Virus record (IMG/VR): IMGVR_UViG_3300033693_000005
Coordinates: 2,055-66,054 of that record
Origin: a virus
Reading direction: 5' to 3' (one strand)
DNA length: 64,000 bases
Both the position numbers and the translations under genes were made by a program. Below, one piece after another: positions 15,731 through 63,505 of this stretch. The notes under the pieces were generated by a model. The model saw only the letters and a list, made by a program, of their open reading frames with translations. It was not told the DNA's origin and made no database searches. Numbering within the stretch: the first letter of the stretch is position 1; each line of letters begins with the position of its first letter.

Positions 15731-15806
15731 AGGTACCATATGAAGGAGTAGAGAGGTTTAAGGTATAAAACCCTTACCTTTCTTATACTCCTCTTAGAAT
15801 GTAAAT
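15722..15806. repeat. intergenic repeat element, copy B
   Basis: GACACATAAAGGT...AAGGTATAAAACCCTT...CTCTTAGAATG; parts are shared with 2839-2940, 16457-16528 and 59622-59672. Confidence 0.6.
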
Positions 15807-16551: not shown

Positions 16552-17091
16552 ATGGAAGATAGAGCAGAAATATTATATAATGAAGCTACTAGAACAATAA
16601 GATATACGGGAACACTTAACGAGTTTGATGTTATGCAGCTAATAGACTTATTAGATGAGGTTATTACAGTAGAACCAAGAGATGCTGTTACACTGTACTT
16701 ATTCACTTATGGTGGCACATATGATGCTACAATAGCTTTATATGATTATATTAAATTTGAACAAACTCCAATACATACAGTAGTATCTGGTACAGCAATG
16801 AGTGGAGGAACATTAATTACAGCTTGTGGATCTGGTGAAAGAGTTGCTTTTCCTAATGCTAGATTTATGATACACGGATTGCAACATTCTATTGGTAGAG
16901 GATCACACGTAGACAATAGCATTGAATTAAAAGAAGATGAAAGATTAAATGAGAAGTTTGTTGAGCTGTTAGCTTTTGAAACTGATAATAGTATAGAGAA
17001 AGTTAGAGAAGATTTAAAAAGAGATAGATACTTATCTGCTGATGAGGCATTAGAATACGGTTTAATTGATAGAATAGTAGGGGAGGAATAA
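16552..17091 (+). CDS. clpP: ClpP-like serine protease
   Basis: TYGG, AMSGG (Ser), MIHG (His), RDRYLSADEALEYGLID (Asp). Confidence 0.85.
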   Translation: MEDRAEILYNEATRTIRYTGTLNEFDVMQLIDLLDEVITVEPRDAVTLYLFTYGGTYDATIALYDYIKFEQTPIHTVVSGTAMSGGTLITACGSGERVAFPNARFMIHGLQHSIGRGSHVDNSIELKEDERLNEKFVELLAFETDNSIEKVREDLKRDRYLSADEALEYGLIDRIVGEE

Positions 17092-20523: not shown

Positions 20524-20685
20524 TCACTTCCTTACTTTTTTAAAGAAATCTAATATGTCTCTCTCTGTTGATAAGAATGTTGCGAGTGAAACATAAATGA
20601 GAGGATCAATAGTATTCTGAATAAACCCTACTATACCAATACCTAAACAAACAAAAGCAATTAGATAGGTCATAATAAATTCCAT
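20524..20685 (-). CDS. holin-like protein
   Basis: two TM segments and a basic C-tail; likely start is MEFIMTY at 20685, directly after the amidase. Confidence 0.55.
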   Translation of the reverse strand: MEFIMTYLIAFVCLGIGIVGFIQNTIDPLIYVSLATFLSTERDILDFFKKVRK

Positions 20686-20698
20686 ATCTTTTTCCTTC

Positions 20699-21265
20699 TT
20701 ATCTAGATTTTTCATACTCATCAACACCTTCCTCAATAGCTTTTATTAACTGTTCTTGATACTTAGGATTATGTAATTTAGCTTCCTCTTGAGGATTAGT
20801 GATAAACCCTAACTCAATCAGTATAGCAGGGGCTAAGACGCTTTTTAAAACGTACAAGTCACCTCTAGGCTTTATACCTCTATCGCTTGCTTTACTCCTG
20901 TGTATGAGTCTATTCTGTACCTTAGAAGCTAACCTGATGCCTTCATCACTCTCTGGGAAGTGTAGTGTTTCTATTCCGTTAGCTTTGCTATTAGCAGAAG
21001 CGTTAGCATGTAAAGAGATTACTATATCAGCTCCATATCTATCTGCTAAATCACACCTATCAGACAAAGTTACATACTCATCATTAGGTCTAATTAATAA
21101 TACCTCATGTTTTTTCATAAGTTTAGCAGTTAACTTTAATCCAAACTCTCTAACTAATACACTCTCTAGAGTATAAAATTTATCTTCATAAATATCATCA
21201 TCGCCTTTTTTATCAACAGCCCCCTCTTTATTTTTACCATGTCCATTTAGAATTGCTATCTTCAT
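20699..21265 (-). CDS. endolysin, N-acetylmuramoyl-L-alanine amidase (Amidase_3), catalytic domain only
   Basis: NGHG, TLES, SLHANA, ILIELGFITN. Confidence 0.9.
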   Translation of the reverse strand: MKIAILNGHGKNKEGAVDKKGDDDIYEDKFYTLESVLVREFGLKLTAKLMKKHEVLLIRPNDEYVTLSDRCDLADRYGADIVISLHANASANSKANGIETLHFPESDEGIRLASKVQNRLIHRSKASDRGIKPRGDLYVLKSVLAPAILIELGFITNPQEEAKLHNPKYQEQLIKAIEEGVDEYEKSR

Positions 21266-33170: not shown

Positions 33171-33674
33171 TCACCTCACTTTCTTATATATTTCTGCATA
33201 TAAATCTAATCTACATGAATACATCCCGTCACTGTCTCTATTTAATATTCCATTAGGTAAACTCAGACTTACTCTTCTAAAGTGAGGAATATTCATGTAG
33301 TAGTTATCAAATTTATACTTTAATTCGCTTGCTAGCTCATTTAATAAAATCTTTCTTTTAGTACCTTCTTGTACTTTATCTGTTACTACAATATATAAGG
33401 CTAAATTAATATTTATTTTCTGTACTGTATCTCCTTGACTATCCCTTGTTTTATTAGTTACAGGACTATCTAATTCCATTACCTGTACAATAGGTCTAAC
33501 GTTGTCAGGATTTTGATTCATCCACTCTACTGTATTCTGAACATCATCAAAATCTATTGCATACCAAGAGTCAGGGAAATCATCATTTTCACCTTGTTTA
33601 GTCATAATAAAAGTTTGCAATTCCTCGTGCATATTATTTATAAAATTCTTTGCTTGTGTAATCAATTTTTCCAC
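33171..33674 (-). CDS. putative tail terminator
   Basis: size, position and beta-alpha pattern. Confidence 0.4.
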   Translation of the reverse strand: MEKLITQAKNFINNMHEELQTFIMTKQGENDDFPDSWYAIDFDDVQNTVEWMNQNPDNVRPIVQVMELDSPVTNKTRDSQGDTVQKININLALYIVVTDKVQEGTKRKILLNELASELKYKFDNYYMNIPHFRRVSLSLPNGILNRDSDGMYSCRLDLYAEIYKKVR

Positions 33675-58448: not shown

Positions 58449-58796
58449 CTATTTATAAATAACTTTTTCTACCATTTTAACTTCTTTTTCAACTTCTCCA
58501 CATGCCATATCTGTTGGTTGACCTTCTTGCATTTCTGAAGCAGGTTGATTCCACCAAAAAGAGATATAACTATCCCCAACTTTCCAAACTGACTGCATTT
58601 CATAACTCCATCTTCTTCTTTCACCTGTTTCTTTATTTAATACTTCTCTTATTTCTAGTGATTTTCTTTTTTCAGAATCATATCCTAATTCACTAAGAGC
58701 TTCATATAAGACATCATCTGGAAAGCTAGTGTATTCTCCAATCAAGTCATTACACTTTTCTACTAAGTTATCCATATTCATTTTCATTCCTCCCAA
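58449..58796 (-). CDS. hypothetical protein
   Basis: ORF track. Confidence 0.55.
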   Translation of the reverse strand: MGGMKMNMDNLVEKCNDLIGEYTSFPDDVLYEALSELGYDSEKRKSLEIREVLNKETGERRRWSYEMQSVWKVGDSYISFWWNQPASEMQEGQPTDMACGEVEKEVKMVEKVIYK

Positions 58797-58919
58797 TTAT
58801 AATAATTTAATTCTTCTTGCAATCTTTCATAATCATTCTTTAACTCAATAATTCTATCAACATATTCTTTATCAACATCATCTCTTTTTACCATATCCAT
58901 ATTTAAGTCTATTAATTCT

Positions 58920-59150
58920 TTAGCTATTTTCTGTAGATTTTCCATTATTCATCTTTTTCCTCCTAACTTTCTCTAATGTGTTTTCTTTCTCTTTTAACTT
59001 ATATTCTAACATAATATTCCTGTATCTTAATTCTGAATTATCTTGTATTCTATCAACTAAGATAACTAATAAGCCAAATGTTATTAAAAATAGTATATTT
59101 TCCATTATTTGTCTCCTTTCACTTAAATACCCTTCTACTATATTATACAC
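58920..59150 (-). CDS. membrane-anchored hypothetical protein
   Basis: TM plus coil; true start probably MENILF. Confidence 0.45.
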   Translation of the reverse strand: MYNIVEGYLSERRQIMENILFLITFGLLVILVDRIQDNSELRYRNIMLEYKLKEKENTLEKVRRKKMNNGKSTENS

Positions 59151-59170
59151 GAAAAGTAGTGAAATTTCAA
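59142..59170 (-). promoter_or_regulatory. sigma-A-type promoter (class I motif)
   Basis: minus strand CCTTGAAA-17 nt (..TTTTCGTG)-TATAAT. Confidence 0.75.
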
Positions 59171-59184
59171 GGGTTTTATGTAAA

Positions 59185-59391
59185 TTAATTTAAAATAATT
59201 GTTCCTAACCAGTTTGCTAAGTAAACAAGTCCTATAAGAAACATTAACCACTGTGTAATTGTTATAAAATCATATACTGCTGACTGTTTCTCAAAAGGTA
59301 AACTCCAGTAAAGAGCATGAAAGAAATAAAATACAAACAATGATGCTATAAGTAATACAAATAAAACTGTTAATCCAGTTAAAAATTCCAT
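59185..59391 (-). CDS. membrane protein
   Basis: two TM segments. Confidence 0.6.
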   Translation of the reverse strand: MEFLTGLTVLFVLLIASLFVFYFFHALYWSLPFEKQSAVYDFITITQWLMFLIGLVYLANWLGTIILN

Positions 59392-59528
59392 TACTCTACC
59401 TCCTTTTTATAAAGTTCTTTTTCTAATAAGTTAGCAATTAATTCATCTCTACTAATATCTTCTTGATCTATATGATTCTCTAGTCTTTCAACTAAATCAT
59501 TTGGTAAAGAAACACTTAAATCAAGCAT
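59391..59528 (-). CDS. ribbon-helix-helix (CopG-like) regulator (45 aa)
   Basis: read by hand: MLDLSVSLPNDLVERLE...ISRDELIANLL; GGAGGTG RBS. Confidence 0.65.
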   Translation of the reverse strand: MLDLSVSLPNDLVERLENHIDQEDISRDELIANLLEKELYKKEVE

Positions 59529-59621
59529 TATCTCACCTCCTACACCTAAAACTATGTAATTAACCTACCAGATTCCCCACAGACGGGCAAAACAGTACCT
59601 TCTGTGGCTTTAAATTCTTTC

Positions 59622-59672
59622 AAGGTATAAAACCCTTCATAAAATAATACTACTCTTAAAATCCATTCTCAG
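59622..59672. repeat. intergenic repeat element, copy A
   Basis: AAGGTATAAAACCCTT identical to 15760-15775; CTCTTAAAATCCATTCTCAG resembles the reverse complement of 2839-2856. Confidence 0.55.
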
Positions 59673-59673
59673 G

Positions 59674-59928
59674 CTATCTCAAGCGTCTTATCTTTTTTGG
59701 TGATTTCTTTTTTACTAAGTTATATGTAGCTCCAAACTGATTTCTATTAACTTCCTCTATTTTAAACTGTCTATTTTTATCTAAGTAAATTGGTGCTTCA
59801 AAAGGGCTGATACACCTAATACCCTTTCTATCAATTCCTACAACTAAAAACAATGATTTACCCTGATGATACCAAAGAGTATCATCATTATCAAGTATAA
59901 GTCCTATTGCATACTCTAGTTTATTCAA
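59674..59928 (-). CDS. early hypothetical protein ending PKKIRRLR
   Basis: ORF track. Confidence 0.6.
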   Translation of the reverse strand: MNKLEYAIGLILDNDDTLWYHQGKSLFLVVGIDRKGIRCISPFEAPIYLDKNRQFKIEEVNRNQFGATYNLVKKKSPKKIRRLR

Positions 59929-60238
59929 TTCGCCTCACCTTCTTCTTCCCTCTAATACCATATTGAAAAATTAATTTATCTAATCCATAACTTTCGTGTG
60001 AAAAATTCATACCTTCATATAAACCTTCAAGGGGTGTGAAAATTATCTCCCAGACGTTTATTAATCCACCCACATTCCAATCTATAGTTAAATCTGCTAT
60101 TTTTATTTTAATAGGTTTAGGAAACTGTGCCAATATAGTAGCACAATAAATATCATTTTGGTATTTCACATCTTCTTTTATATGTGCTATTCTTGGTTTT
60201 TTTATATTTCTTATAAATCTATCATATTCTTTTTTCAT
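59921..60238 (-). CDS. early hypothetical protein ending KKKVRRIE
   Basis: ORF track. Confidence 0.6.
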   Translation of the reverse strand: MKKEYDRFIRNIKKPRIAHIKEDVKYQNDIYCATILAQFPKPIKIKIADLTIDWNVGGLINVWEIIFTPLEGLYEGMNFSHESYGLDKLIFQYGIRGKKKVRRIE

Positions 60239-60468
60239 GATAACCTCCTTACTTTCCTCATACTATTTTCTCTTTTCTCAATTATACTATTTAATCTAAC
60301 TGATAATCCAAGTATCTCTATAGTACCACTAATACCAGTCTGTCTACCTACTATCTTACTCCTCCCTCTCAAGTAAATCATCATATATTTTAGCTGCGAT
60401 AAGCTATATTTGGACATATTATAAGTATACAAGTCATCTATAAATTTTCTTTTATCCATATTTTTCAT
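60235..60468 (-). CDS. early hypothetical protein ending RKVRRLS
   Basis: ORF track. Confidence 0.6.
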   Translation of the reverse strand: MKNMDKRKFIDDLYTYNMSKYSLSQLKYMMIYLRGRSKIVGRQTGISGTIEILGLSVRLNSIIEKRENSMRKVRRLS

Positions 60469-60727
60469 ACTTACTCCTTTCTAAGTAAAACTCATACATT
60501 CTTTGCTGTTTTATCTCTTCAGCTTCTCTCTCTTTATAAACATCTACAGAACTACATTTAGGGCATTTTAAAGTTTCTCCTCTACCGTTCACATCTTTTC
60601 TCCAAAAAGAACTTTTTGTTTGCTTATAGCCACAATCAATACACTCATATGCCTTGAAATAATTTACGAAAAATATAATAAAAATAAGAAAGGCTGTTAA
60701 GAAGCAGCCAAAAATAAAATATTGCAT
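60452..60727 (-). CDS. membrane-anchored zinc-ribbon protein
   Basis: TM plus CIDC...CPKC. Confidence 0.6.
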   Translation of the reverse strand: MQYFIFGCFLTAFLIFIIFFVNYFKAYECIDCGYKQTKSSFWRKDVNGRGETLKCPKCSSVDVYKEREAEEIKQQRMYEFYLERSKYEKYG

Positions 60728-60878
60728 ATCTTCCTCCTTTAGTGATATTTTCTATAAAACTCTGGATCTATATGTCTTGAGCTAGCTGAAGTGTGTGGTT
60801 TCTTTATAAAAATACACATGATATAATAAATAATTATCATAAATAAGATTCCCATAAGCTCATCTCCCTTCTAAATAC

Positions 60879-60907
60879 ATCTTATCAGATAAAATATGTA
60901 ATGTCAA
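60879..60907 (-). promoter_or_regulatory. sigma-A-type promoter (class II motif)
   Basis: TTGACA-17 nt-TAAGAT with TG extension (TATCTGATAAGAT). Confidence 0.7.
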
Positions 60908-60913
60908 GAGTTT

Positions 60914-61030
60914 TTATAAATCTTTTTCTCCTTCAGCTACCTCATCCACATGTAAAAAGCACATTTCGTGCATACCATCTATTACAACATCTTCCTCCTC
61001 AATCTCTTGTTTACAGTATCTACACTTCAT
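60914..61030 (-). CDS. 38-aa zinc-binding peptide
   Basis: MKCRYC...MHEMC; ATGA-coupled to the upstream gene. Confidence 0.5.
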   Translation of the reverse strand: MKCRYCKQEIEEEDVVIDGMHEMCFLHVDEVAEGEKDL

Positions 61031-61290
61031 TTTAGACGTCTCACTTTCTTTGGTTGCTTATACTGTTTGATGAGTTTATCTACTTTTCTCTTAATTCTAC
61101 GATACTCTTCTTCAGACTGTGTGTAATGGTAAGTTAAAAACTTGTCTCCTATCTTCCAAACAGTCTCTCCATAATGATAGTCATAAGAATAATGACCTTC
61201 AGGACATTTATTATTTTCTTCTGCCAATGTTCCTTGTATAAAATCAACTGCATAAGTCTTCATTCTTTTTCCACAAATTGGACATTCCAT
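61027..61290 (-). CDS. early zinc-binding protein ending PKKVRRLK
   Basis: CPIC...CPEGH. Confidence 0.6.
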   Translation of the reverse strand: MECPICGKRMKTYAVDFIQGTLAEENNKCPEGHYSYDYHYGETVWKIGDKFLTYHYTQSEEEYRRIKRKVDKLIKQYKQPKKVRRLK

Positions 61291-61291
61291 A

Positions 61292-61669
61292 TTAATCCTC
61301 CTCTCCTAAAATTCCTAACAATTCTATATTGCTAATAGAATTATCACTCAATTTTATATCACTAAAATAACCATTATTTGTTACAAAAATACTAAAACAT
61401 AAATTTTCTTCATCCCAGTAAATATAGCCTTTAAGTTCAAATTTATCCCCAAACATATACTTATAATCAAACTTTATAATATCTTTTTCAAAAAATCCAT
61501 CTTTTACATGCTGGCAGATAGAATCTTCATAAATCTGCTCAGTAAATAGGAACCCTATATCATCCTCATACTGTATAAACCACTGACCATGCCTAAATAG
61601 AAGATTCCCTTGCACCCAAGTATCCTCACCTACTATTTTACCTCTGTATAAGTATCTGTTATTTTCCAT
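61292..61669 (-). CDS. YopX-family protein
   Basis: YRGK...WVQG...ICQ....FEKDII...IELLG. Confidence 0.7.
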   Translation of the reverse strand: MENNRYLYRGKIVGEDTWVQGNLLFRHGQWFIQYEDDIGFLFTEQIYEDSICQHVKDGFFEKDIIKFDYKYMFGDKFELKGYIYWDEENLCFSIFVTNNGYFSDIKLSDNSISNIELLGILGEED

Positions 61670-61738
61670 ATTAATCTTCCTCCTAAGTTATTAACCATTC
61701 AGTTAATCTATCATTTGTTTTTTGTTCTAGTTTATACC

Positions 61739-61948
61739 TCATATTATCTCTCTTTCCTTAATTTTTTTTATAAACTTATCATACCTATCTCTATCTGTTA
61801 CTACTATTGTAGAATAAACAACTCTTTCTTCAAACTCTTCTTCTGTCATCTTTCTGGTGTATAAATCTAGGTCTGTTCTATTAAATCCATCAGGATCTAA
61901 TATTTCTATTCCTTTTTGTACAGCCCATTGTTCTAATGTTTTCTTCAT
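61739..61948 (-). CDS. hypothetical protein
   Basis: ILDPDGF motif, ORF in operon. Confidence 0.55.
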   Translation of the reverse strand: MKKTLEQWAVQKGIEILDPDGFNRTDLDLYTRKMTEEEFEERVVYSTIVVTDRDRYDKFIKKIKEREII

Positions 61949-61949
61949 A

Positions 61950-62132
61950 TTATCTCTCCTTCATATTAAGATATTCTAATATGTACTGTTCCATGTCTTT
62001 TTCATCATAAGCTTCAACACTGTCATCTAGGACAACTTCTTCAACAAATAGCTGCATAGCAAAGTGTAATTTATCAGTGTTAGTTCCTACACATCTATTA
62101 GCTAGTATCTTGGCAATTTCTTTATTAGTCAT
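61950..62132 (-). CDS. hypothetical protein
   Basis: ORF in operon. Confidence 0.5.
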   Translation of the reverse strand: MTNKEIAKILANRCVGTNTDKLHFAMQLFVEEVVLDDSVEAYDEKDMEQYILEYLNMKER

Positions 62133-62301
62133 TCTTTAATTCCTCCTCAATTTCCCTCTCTAATAGACCTTCTTCACTACTCCAGGTACAGTAATATTTT
62201 ATTTCTCTATCTGATCCATTACAATTTCTAGCATCACCTGTCTTATAGTCTGGGCAATGTGGACATTTTATTTTTCTGTGTAGATTATAGTAGTTTTTCA
62301 T
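62125..62301 (-). CDS. small Cys-rich protein (58 aa)
   Basis: read by hand: KCPHC...NC...YC. Confidence 0.5.
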   Translation of the reverse strand: MKNYYNLHRKIKCPHCPDYKTGDARNCNGSDREIKYYCTWSSEEGLLEREIEEELKND

Positions 62302-62311
62302 AAACTACCCC

Positions 62312-63505
62312 CTAGTTATCCTTATAATTATAAATAGGTTTAATATGTTTTCTAATTTCTACAGTCTCTTGGATATTATCTATTATTTCTTGGTAACTCT
62401 TATAAGCAAAGGCACTCTCATCTACTGTACTTTCCTTTACAGAACTAGAAAAGATACCCTTCATACTATTTTTGTAATCTTCAAAATTAACCTCTTCTTT
62501 AGCCTGACTCCTGGACATTATTCTCCCTGCACCATGTGGTGCTGAATAGTTCCATTTAGGATTTCCTTTACCAATACATATTAAAGACCCATCTCTCATA
62601 TTAAGAGGTATAAGAAGCTTCTCACCCTCATAAGCTGATACCGCTCCCTTACGAATAATATTATCATCTCCAATATAATTATGAACAGTTTCCCACTTAT
62701 TAATATCCCCTAAAAGACCTAAATGATGTAAGATTCTATTACCTATAATTCTTCTATTTCTACTAGCATATTCTTGAGCAACTTTCATATCCTTTAGATA
62801 GTTATCTTTAAGCTCATCAGTTAGGTGCATTAAGGATTTCTTTATTTTAGGAAAAGTTCTTTTTATTTTCTGAATTTCACCTTCAATTCTTTGTTCTTCT
62901 CCCATGGATTTTAATTCTTTTATTTTATTATCTATTTTATTTCTCAACTTATCCTGGTATTGATCTTCTGCTGCATCTTGATAATGTCTTGCAATTTTGT
63001 ATCCAAAGTTTCTACTACCCGAGTGTATTACTAAATACTTATTACCTTCTTCATCTACGTCAATCTCAATGAAGTGATTTCCTCCTCCAAGAGTTCCTAA
63101 CTTAGATTTATGGTTTAGTTCATTTAATCCTAAGTCATTAATTACTCTCTTCTCTTCAGCTGTTAAGCCAACTTTAGGACTATCATAATAATTAAATCCA
63201 CTAGGTATATTCTCATTAATGAATTTATCTAGCTTTTCTAGGTTAATATCTATCTGACCAAGCTCAACTACATGCATTCCACAATTTATGTCCACCCCTA
63301 TGACATTAGGAATTACCTTATCTGTAAGTTCTGCTGTAAAACCTATGCAGATACCAGCTCCTTTATGTACATCTGGCATAATAGCTATATTTGAGTCTTT
63401 AAAGGCAATATTATTACAAACTTCGTATACTTGTGATAAGGCTCCTTCTTCAATATTATTAGTAAATATCTTGGCTTTTGTGTGTTTTCCCTGTATTTCA
63501 AACAT
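62312..63505 (-). CDS. rtcB: RtcB RNA 3'-phosphate/cyclic-phosphate ligase
   Basis: MPDVH.G, DINCGM, GTLGGGNHFIE, HSGSR, HN, RKGA, PHGAGR. Confidence 0.93.
   Translation of the reverse strand: MFEIQGKHTKAKIFTNNIEEGALSQVYEVCNNIAFKDSNIAIMPDVHKGAGICIGFTAELTDKVIPNVIGVDINCGMHVVELGQIDINLEKLDKFINENIPSGFNYYDSPKVGLTAEEKRVINDLGLNELNHKSKLGTLGGGNHFIEIDVDEEGNKYLVIHSGSRNFGYKIARHYQDAAEDQYQDKLRNKIDNKIKELKSMGEEQRIEGEIQKIKRTFPKIKKSLMHLTDELKDNYLKDMKVAQEYASRNRRIIGNRILHHLGLLGDINKWETVHNYIGDDNIIRKGAVSAYEGEKLLIPLNMRDGSLICIGKGNPKWNYSAPHGAGRIMSRSQAKEEVNFEDYKNSMKGIFSSSVKESTVDESAFAYKSYQEIIDNIQETVEIRKHIKPIYNYKDN

Follow-up and report, generated by a model that had tools for sequence, protein, structure and literature searches.

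Probable reuse of one gene junction behind a basic C-terminal peptide shared by unrelated early proteins of a phage

Small orphan genes crowd the early regions of phage genomes and turn over fast, and their acquisition, expression and coordination are poorly understood. Among the short terminal peptides of phage proteins, the capsid-targeting sequence of T4 is N-terminal, occurs on the internal proteins of the virion and is cleaved by the prohead protease. In T4-type phages, the modular shuffling of small early open reading frames (ORFs) is mediated by mobile regulatory cassettes, the PeSLs, which consist of an intergenic promoter and terminator hairpins (PMC2839356; PMC4122927). Basic C-terminal peptides can also serve as ClpX degrons, as does the RRKKAI of MuA (cited in PMC5143411); such degrons are not the same from one species to another (PMC5143411), and in SspB/RssB the C-terminal ClpX-binding region docks on ClpX's zinc-binding domain (PMC7226468). 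Here we describe a basic C-terminal peptide, referred to as the tail, that is shared by four otherwise dissimilar small proteins in an early gene array of the virus record IMGVR_UViG_3300033693_000005 (IMG/VR), together with the gene junctions that encode it. The whole stretch of DNA analyzed, 64,000 nucleotides (nt) corresponding to positions 2,055 to 66,054 of the record, is called the window.

Four minus-strand ORFs in the window shared the C-terminus [KR]K[VI]RR[LI]x followed by the stop codon, the motif always ending one residue before the stop. These genes, labelled F1, F2, F4 and F7 with lengths given in amino acids (aa), and the small ORF that follows F1 are as follows.

61027..61290, minus strand: F1, zinc-ribbon protein of 87 aa with the tail PKKVRRLK (context ...QPKKVRRLK); tail codons 61030-61053
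60914..61030, minus strand: Cys-rich ORF of 38 aa without a tail; its ATG overlaps the stop of F1 as ATGA
60235..60468, minus strand: F2, 77 aa with the tail MRKVRRLS (context ...SMRKVRRLS); tail codons 60238-60258
59921..60238, minus strand: F4, 105 aa with the tail KKKVRRIE (context ...GKKKVRRIE); tail codons 59924-59947
59674..59928, minus strand: F7, 84 aa with the tail PKKIRRLR (context ...SPKKIRRLR), the last gene of the array; tail codons 59677-59700

The motif was present in no other ORF among the 349 ORFs of at least 30 aa in the window, and a relaxed form of it gave no added C-terminal case in the six frames of the window or in the remaining 2.4 kb of the record. From the amino-acid composition of the window, 5e-5 such C-termini would be expected by chance among 110 genes. 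When the last nine residues were removed, the four protein bodies showed no mutual similarity in BLASTP, and the tailed proteins gave neither a significant match in Pfam nor an informative family in PHROGs. A preliminary description of this DNA had reported the four ORFs, their C-termini and their tail codons, and had called the proteins otherwise dissimilar; all of these statements were confirmed, and the scan of all ORF C-termini that it proposed confined the motif to these four in the window and the rest of the record.

The tail probably arises where one homologous junction module is read in frame, a module that would link translationally coupled cassettes of small genes in an early operon array; this reading is drawn from the sequence comparisons that follow. 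Three of the four tails stood directly before another gene and their stops overlapped its start, in the form of ATGA at 60235-60238 and 61027-61030 and of TTGAATAA at 59921-59928. The DNA of the F1 tail, AAGAAAGTGAG, formed the leader of the 38-aa ORF, with a pairing energy of -9.8 kcal/mol to the anti-Shine-Dalgarno (anti-SD) sequence. The F2 tail contained AAGGAGG, the Shine-Dalgarno (SD) sequence for the ATG start of F4 in the ATGA overlap (leader, -14.5 kcal/mol), and the F4 tail contained GAAGGTGAGG, the SD of F7 (leader, -14.2 kcal/mol), the TTG start of F7 (59926-59928) being located inside the Ile-Glu codons of F4. All the tail leaders preceding a gene showed energies of -9.8 to -15.5 kcal/mol with the anti-SD at the 3' end of 16S rRNA, when compared with a median of -10.9 kcal/mol for the window genes and -3.6 kcal/mol for random 21-mers. 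The preliminary description had counted two tails that overlap a ribosome-binding site (RBS); the number is in fact three of four, as the gene directly downstream of 61027 (60914-61030), for which the F1 tail is the SD leader, had been missed.

The tail of F7 had no SD complementarity (-2.7 kcal/mol), and the 145 nt after it held no gene and no stop/start overlap, in agreement with the earlier statement that no gene directly follows at 59674. No promoter-like site, terminator or shared hairpin was found at the junctions. They also had no shared RNA structure, with fold z-scores of -0.2 to -2.0 and structures that differed between junctions, and Rfam gave no match within 58500-62500.

Among the 65 close junctions of the window, only the three of the array encoded RR[LI]x, and the other 62 encoded different tails (KEVE, KEG, GEED, KER, KGG and so on). 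Two junctions of structural genes, 33171-33674 and 20524-20736, had the same type of SD in the same frame and gave KKVR and KKVRK before the stop. These counts bear on a nascent-chain or termination effect, by which a basic-basic-aliphatic-x end would be selected to tune termination and re-initiation at the stop/start overlap. Indeed, all tails but one lie on stop/start overlaps, and the position of the motif is fixed to the stop and not to the next start, as the distance from SD to start is not constant (5 to 9 nt or longer). We nevertheless regard such an effect as very unlikely, because F7 keeps the tail with no gene downstream and 62 other coupled junctions do without the tail.

The comparison was extended to 13 related metagenomic contigs (L002-L014), found by protein searches and contig look-ups. 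The tail was detected in these contigs on at least seven families, namely F1 (87 aa, with an 85-aa form, F1b), F2 (77 aa), F3 (79 aa), F4 (105 aa), F5 (90 aa), F6 (66/67 aa) and F7 (84 aa), of which F1b, F3, F5 and F6 are genes of the relatives that do not occur in the window. The tailed families include accessory cassettes, which only some of the genomes carry, and one contig had seven tailed genes. At a loose contig end of a further run, an eighth upstream ORF (...WKDYFKIVDN) was fused in frame to KKVRRIE. The preliminary description had taken conservation in orthologues as a touchstone, and the orthologues of all four window proteins did keep the tail, F7 in nine homologues down to 52% identity; the only exception was the F2 gene of L004 (1813-2041), in which a 1-nt deletion makes the protein end early with EKIV and leaves the tail DNA as an untranslated leader of F4. 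This F2 may be a tail-less variant that occurs in nature, or the assembly may be wrong in an A-run. The array also had members without the tail, which were the 51-aa cassette of L003 and the 38-aa and 91-aa ORFs.

F1 and F1b were true paralogues (E=3e-10 without the tail), and phage early genes diverge fast, so that the tailed proteins might be thought of as diverged copies of one ancestral gene, with the tail as the only recognisable part. Such hidden paralogy is highly improbable, because all other pairs of tailed bodies were unrelated, the lengths lie between 66 and 105 aa, F1 and F7 are predicted to differ in topology, and 129 tail-less relatives of F1 exist elsewhere.

The last four to five codons of the tail varied with the downstream gene and not with the protein that bears them. 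The junctions that were observed behind different upstream genes are listed below.

...GTGAGRCGAATTGAATAA (also given as ...AAGGTGAGRCGAATTGAATAA): downstream F7 (84 aa; TTG start within ATT GAA), upstream F4 (105 aa) or F6 (67 aa)
...AGAAGGCTTGCTTAA (also given as ...GTGAGAAGGCTTGCTTAA): downstream F6 (67 aa), upstream F4 (105 aa) or F5 (90 aa)
...GTAAGGAGGTTATCATGA: downstream F4 (105 aa), upstream F2 (77 aa) or F3 (79 aa)
...AGGCGATTRAAATAA: downstream the variant of the 38-aa ORF with an ATA start, upstream the 87-aa or the 85-aa gene

The tail of F4 accordingly read RRIE, RRLA, RRLK or KRIK across genomes, depending on the gene that followed. The cassettes of F3, F6 and F5 were flanked by direct repeats located in the tails, of 15, 11-12 and 8-9 nt, respectively; the adjacent ends of non-tail genes, used as a control, gave repeats of at most 9 nt (median, 6 nt). 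Independent runs gave contigs that matched the window through F7 and the tail and diverged exactly at 59944-59947, the 5' edge of the tail, beyond which they continued with F6 or with the ORF ending in WKDYFKIVDN. Three of the four tails in the window had CGN as the codon of the second Arg, and CGN accounted for 6.3% of the Arg codons in the window. The rarity of these codons, noted earlier as a sign of selection on the protein, was thus confirmed, but a rare codon shared by the tails speaks for a common origin of the tail DNA and not for independent convergence on the peptide.

According to the proposed model, the module would comprise a purine-rich SD (AAR-AAR-GTR-AGR), a short spacer and the start of the next gene, overlapping the preceding stop as ATGA or TTGnnTAA. 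With respect to the upstream ORF, all modules would share one frame, and this fixed frame would make that ORF always end with K-K-V-R-R-[L/I]-x. The module would belong to the downstream cassette. Direct repeats of 9-15 nt such as AAGAAGGTGAG, in the 5' part of the tail, would recombine and allow cassettes to be gained, lost and swapped, and any ORF placed upstream would thereby be fused in frame to the common peptide. The overlaps, the SD pairing, the last codons that follow the downstream gene, the breakpoints at the edge of the tail and the rare codon in common are observed; recombination as the shuffling mechanism is inferred here from the comparative patterns, and the geometry of the overlaps suggests that the junctions are translationally coupled. 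One frame-locked module would then act at once as RBS, stop/start overlap, recombination linker and coding sequence of a common peptide. For annotators this carries a warning, in that a peptide common to unrelated proteins can stem from the junction and not from the proteins. The shared tag of the preliminary description is recast in the same way: the sharing appears to be primarily a property of the reused junction, the last codons following the downstream gene, and what stands of the claim is a constraint on the peptide.

Several observations weigh against the junction as the sole cause. The RBS alone does not dictate the peptide, as the 62 other close junctions indicate; the spacer codons, for the second Arg and for L/I, drift without a change of residue; F7 keeps the peptide with neither an SD nor a downstream gene; and the final Ser of F2 is kept through a switch between TCA and AGT. 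These four points together leave the junction model incomplete unless the peptide is also selected. The repeats flanking F1b, and F6 where it stands next to F5, were only 6-7 nt long, within the range of the control. In addition, the relatives are all mutually close, and an unselected tail would have had little time to decay.

The question of whether the peptide itself is selected was thus addressed by counting substitutions among orthologues. The six core codons showed 11 synonymous, 7 conservative (K/R, I/L/V) and no radical changes, and the gene bodies showed 126 synonymous, 31 conservative and 100 radical changes (0/18 vs 100/257, or 39% radical; Fisher p=2e-4), statistics that rest on few independent events among close relatives and in which purine transitions look conservative for two reasons, as K-K-V-R and the SD occupy the same bases. 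The spacer part, on which the SD has little bearing, gave no radical change in 10 events (P=0.007). There the second Arg was encoded by five codons (CGT, CGA, CGC, AGA and AGG) and the L/I position by seven (CTA, TTA, TTG, CTG, ATA, ATT and CTT), of which ATT and CTT are fixed by the embedded TTG start. The F7 tail differed from that of F1 at 7 of the 18 core bases and encoded the same peptide class, which after seven random substitutions has a probability of 4e-4 to 1.5e-3 (about 1e-3). These counts make purifying selection on the peptide somewhat probable. The earlier claim of selection at the protein level is accordingly kept for the absence of radical changes in the core, which is partly confounded by the constraint on the SD, and for the F7 tail, on which no such constraint acts.

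The structures predicted with AF2 place the tail outside the fold. F1 was modelled with a pLDDT of 94.5 as a zinc ribbon of five strands and then a C-terminal helix, and its residues 79-87 formed a coil after the last helix with a pLDDT of about 64; the model of F7 had an N-terminal helix followed by six strands, and its residues 74-84 were coil with a pLDDT of about 58. The tail is thus predicted to be a flexible extension in both proteins. Foldseek searches of the PDB with the two models gave no match at E <= 0.001. F1 belongs to a widespread family of zinc-ribbon proteins of about 85 aa (CPxC...CPxGH), with 145 representatives at 50% identity and no match in Pfam, and the tail was found in 2 of the 131 short representatives, both from this phage group.

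The same data can be read the other way round, with an address tag coming first: K-K-[VI]-R-R-[LI] would be a short linear motif selected through one reader, the overlap with the RBS would be a secondary economy, and the junction would be a plug-and-play device that gives a captured ORF both a start signal and a common tag. The reader could be an unfoldase (ClpX or ClpC), another hub of the host or phage, or nucleic acid. The lack of radical changes in the core agrees with this reading, as do the codon diversity at the second Arg and L/I with unchanged residues, the Ser kept across TCA and AGT, the peptide retained by F7 with its diverged codons and no SD, and the 62 other close junctions that lack the peptide. 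The tail is, moreover, a lineage-specific addition to a widespread zinc-ribbon family (2/131), and its predicted disorder and solvent exposure, often after Pro or Gly, are typical of docking motifs. Against it stand the last codons, which co-vary with the downstream gene, and the overlap of K-K-V-R with the SD, by which purine-preserving changes look conservative for SD reasons too. Some cassettes of the array have no tail (those of 51 aa in L003 and of 38 and 91 aa), nor does F2 in one relative; no candidate for a reader emerged; the tail matches neither MuA RRKKAI nor ssrA, and its final residue can even be Glu; and the statistics come from few independent events in close relatives. We therefore consider the tag-first order of events rather unlikely. 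An array that works as a plug-and-play tagging system, with one reader such as the N-domain of a host unfoldase, a hub protein or nucleic acid recognising K-K-V-R-R-L, is likewise doubtful, and the narrower proposal that the peptide is a specific address tag is put forward only tentatively.

The Clp system had been named earlier as a candidate, and the phage does encode a ClpP, as had been stated.

16552-17091: ClpP-family protein (Pfam CLP_protease, E=3e-33)

A degradation tag was not borne out, as no link of the tail to ClpX, ClpC or ClpP was found, there was no match to the degron of MuA, and the last residue varied (K, S, E, A or R). Given this mismatch, the variable last residue and the species-specific nature of degrons, the Clp hypothesis is a lead only. 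If the tail is a functional tag, the eight-residue sequence could be used to pull down a common partner of the whole set of early proteins, which would make their function testable, and it could provide a portable tag for low-GC Gram-positive hosts. If there is indeed a tagging system, a changing set of unrelated proteins for host takeover or anti-defence would be delivered to, or cleared by, one machinery.

The remaining features of the array are the following.

60879..60907, minus strand: sigma-70-like promoter, TTGACA-17-TAAGAT with TG, from a consensus scan only
60452..60727, minus strand: membrane/zinc-ribbon ORF of 91 aa without a tail, with a 17-nt overlap with the start of F2
59529..59673: intergenic region of 145 nt closing the array, conserved in all relatives and containing a copy of a dispersed element

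The promoter at 60879..60907 probably heads an operon of the 38-aa ORF, the 91-aa ORF, F2, F4 and F7, judging from its position, and consensus promoters at 60907-60879 and 59170-59142, both from the consensus scan, bracket this operon. The 38-aa ORF was conserved in L002, L008, L010 and L013. In two relatives (L004:1255-1370; L012 after 1327) its ATG was replaced by ATA and the ORF was intact, which fits the suspected use of ATA/ATT starts in this genome. The 91-aa ORF was cleanly missing in several relatives (L002, L006 and L008), with a joint from 60460 to 60743 and 13 replacement letters.

The intergenic region 59529-59673 contained, on its coding (minus) strand, a hairpin of the form CCACAGA...TCTGTGG. 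It also contained the dispersed element AAGGTATAAAACCCTT, which was present at 15760 (plus strand) as well, with TAAAAT about 20 nt further on. The element and TAAAAT together look like a plus-strand promoter, from which transcription would run antisense into the array.

In the gene of F7, the N- and C-termini were conserved and the middle (59715-59868) was swapped or diverged in relatives. The F7 of L005 was 52% identical overall, and contig joints ran from 59714 to 59869. This pattern suggests a hypervariable core between recombination-prone ends. Two candidates around the end of F7 were rejected. A mini-ORF of nine codons after the F7 stop was dropped, as its ATG is ATC in L003 and L004. 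The F7 tail also contains A AAA AAG (59692-59700), an in-frame slippery heptamer of the dnaX type, but a programmed -1 frameshift was discarded, as no stimulatory element was found and the shifted product, which would end with DKTLEIA, showed no conservation signal.

The virus record is 66 kb in length, about 53% complete and 32% in G+C content, and the window covers nearly all of it. The window encodes a family-A DNA polymerase, a DnaB-type helicase, a primase, a ribonucleotide reductase, a dUTPase, two DNA methylases, RtcB and a large terminase besides the ClpP-family protein. No close relative was found in IMG/VR by protein searches with F7, an F4 alignment and RtcB or with the exact DNA pattern of the F7 tail, nor among the GenBank phages, in which the RtcB gene gave the only match (65-67% identity). 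The public runs with sequence related to 59400-61400 carried subsurface, freshwater, shale-gas and oil-field metagenome labels. These labels, the G+C content and the strong use of SD sequences suggest a low-GC, anaerobic, Firmicute-like host. The early region of the relatives contained HNH or GIY-YIG homing-endonuclease genes at varying places (L002:6325-7536; L003:8273-9089), and the window had no such genes at these insertion places.

With respect to known systems, the junctions share with translationally coupled genes the stop/start overlap and a strong anti-SD complementarity located 5-9 nt before the next start and within the upstream gene. They differ in that one homologous junction is reused at least eight times in a fixed frame, by which unrelated proteins receive the same peptide of 6-7 residues, and in that the peptide persists on the last gene of the operon with no SD.

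The PeSLs resemble the module in being a short conserved expression signal repeated between small, non-essential early ORFs with fast turnover. The indels and replacements that separate close relatives lie at the repeats in both cases, as was found here for F3, F5 and F6 and at 59944-59947; the PeSL modules are shuffled by recombination between their repeats, as is proposed for the cassettes here. In contrast, the module of this phage consists of an SD and a start within coding sequence, is locked in frame, and has no promoter or shared hairpin. Of the systems described, the PeSL is the closest nucleotide-level analogue of the junction module, which nevertheless lies outside the PeSL family.

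At the level of the peptide, the tail is like the C-terminal peptides recognised by ClpX, of which one known case is on a phage protein, in being short, flexible, basic with aliphatic residues, and placed at the extreme C-terminus. There is, however, no sequence match; the order of the residues differs, and the last position varies and is in some cases acidic. The T4 capsid-targeting sequence is similar in that unrelated proteins of one phage carry a common short terminal peptide as an address, and different in that the peptide described here is C-terminal and belongs to small early ORFs. The e genes of T4 provide another case of neighbouring early ORFs ending in a shared short peptide: e.3, e.4 and e.5 have a loose F-[VI]-x-[ED]-(C)-R in common close to the C-terminus, with e.3 and e.4 ending near ...FVIDCRKIK and ...FVKESRCKSQS. 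That peptide is another one, the motif is looser and further from the stop, and the host phylum and the phage family are different. The present locus, in a low-GC lineage from subsurface-type samples, is an independent example of a pattern that may be general. If the tagging system is true, this locus and the e cluster of T4 would together stand for a general, so far undescribed manner of organising accessory early genes in phages. The anatomy of the junctions is that of ordinary translational coupling, and the unusual part is the reuse of one junction as a cassette linker.

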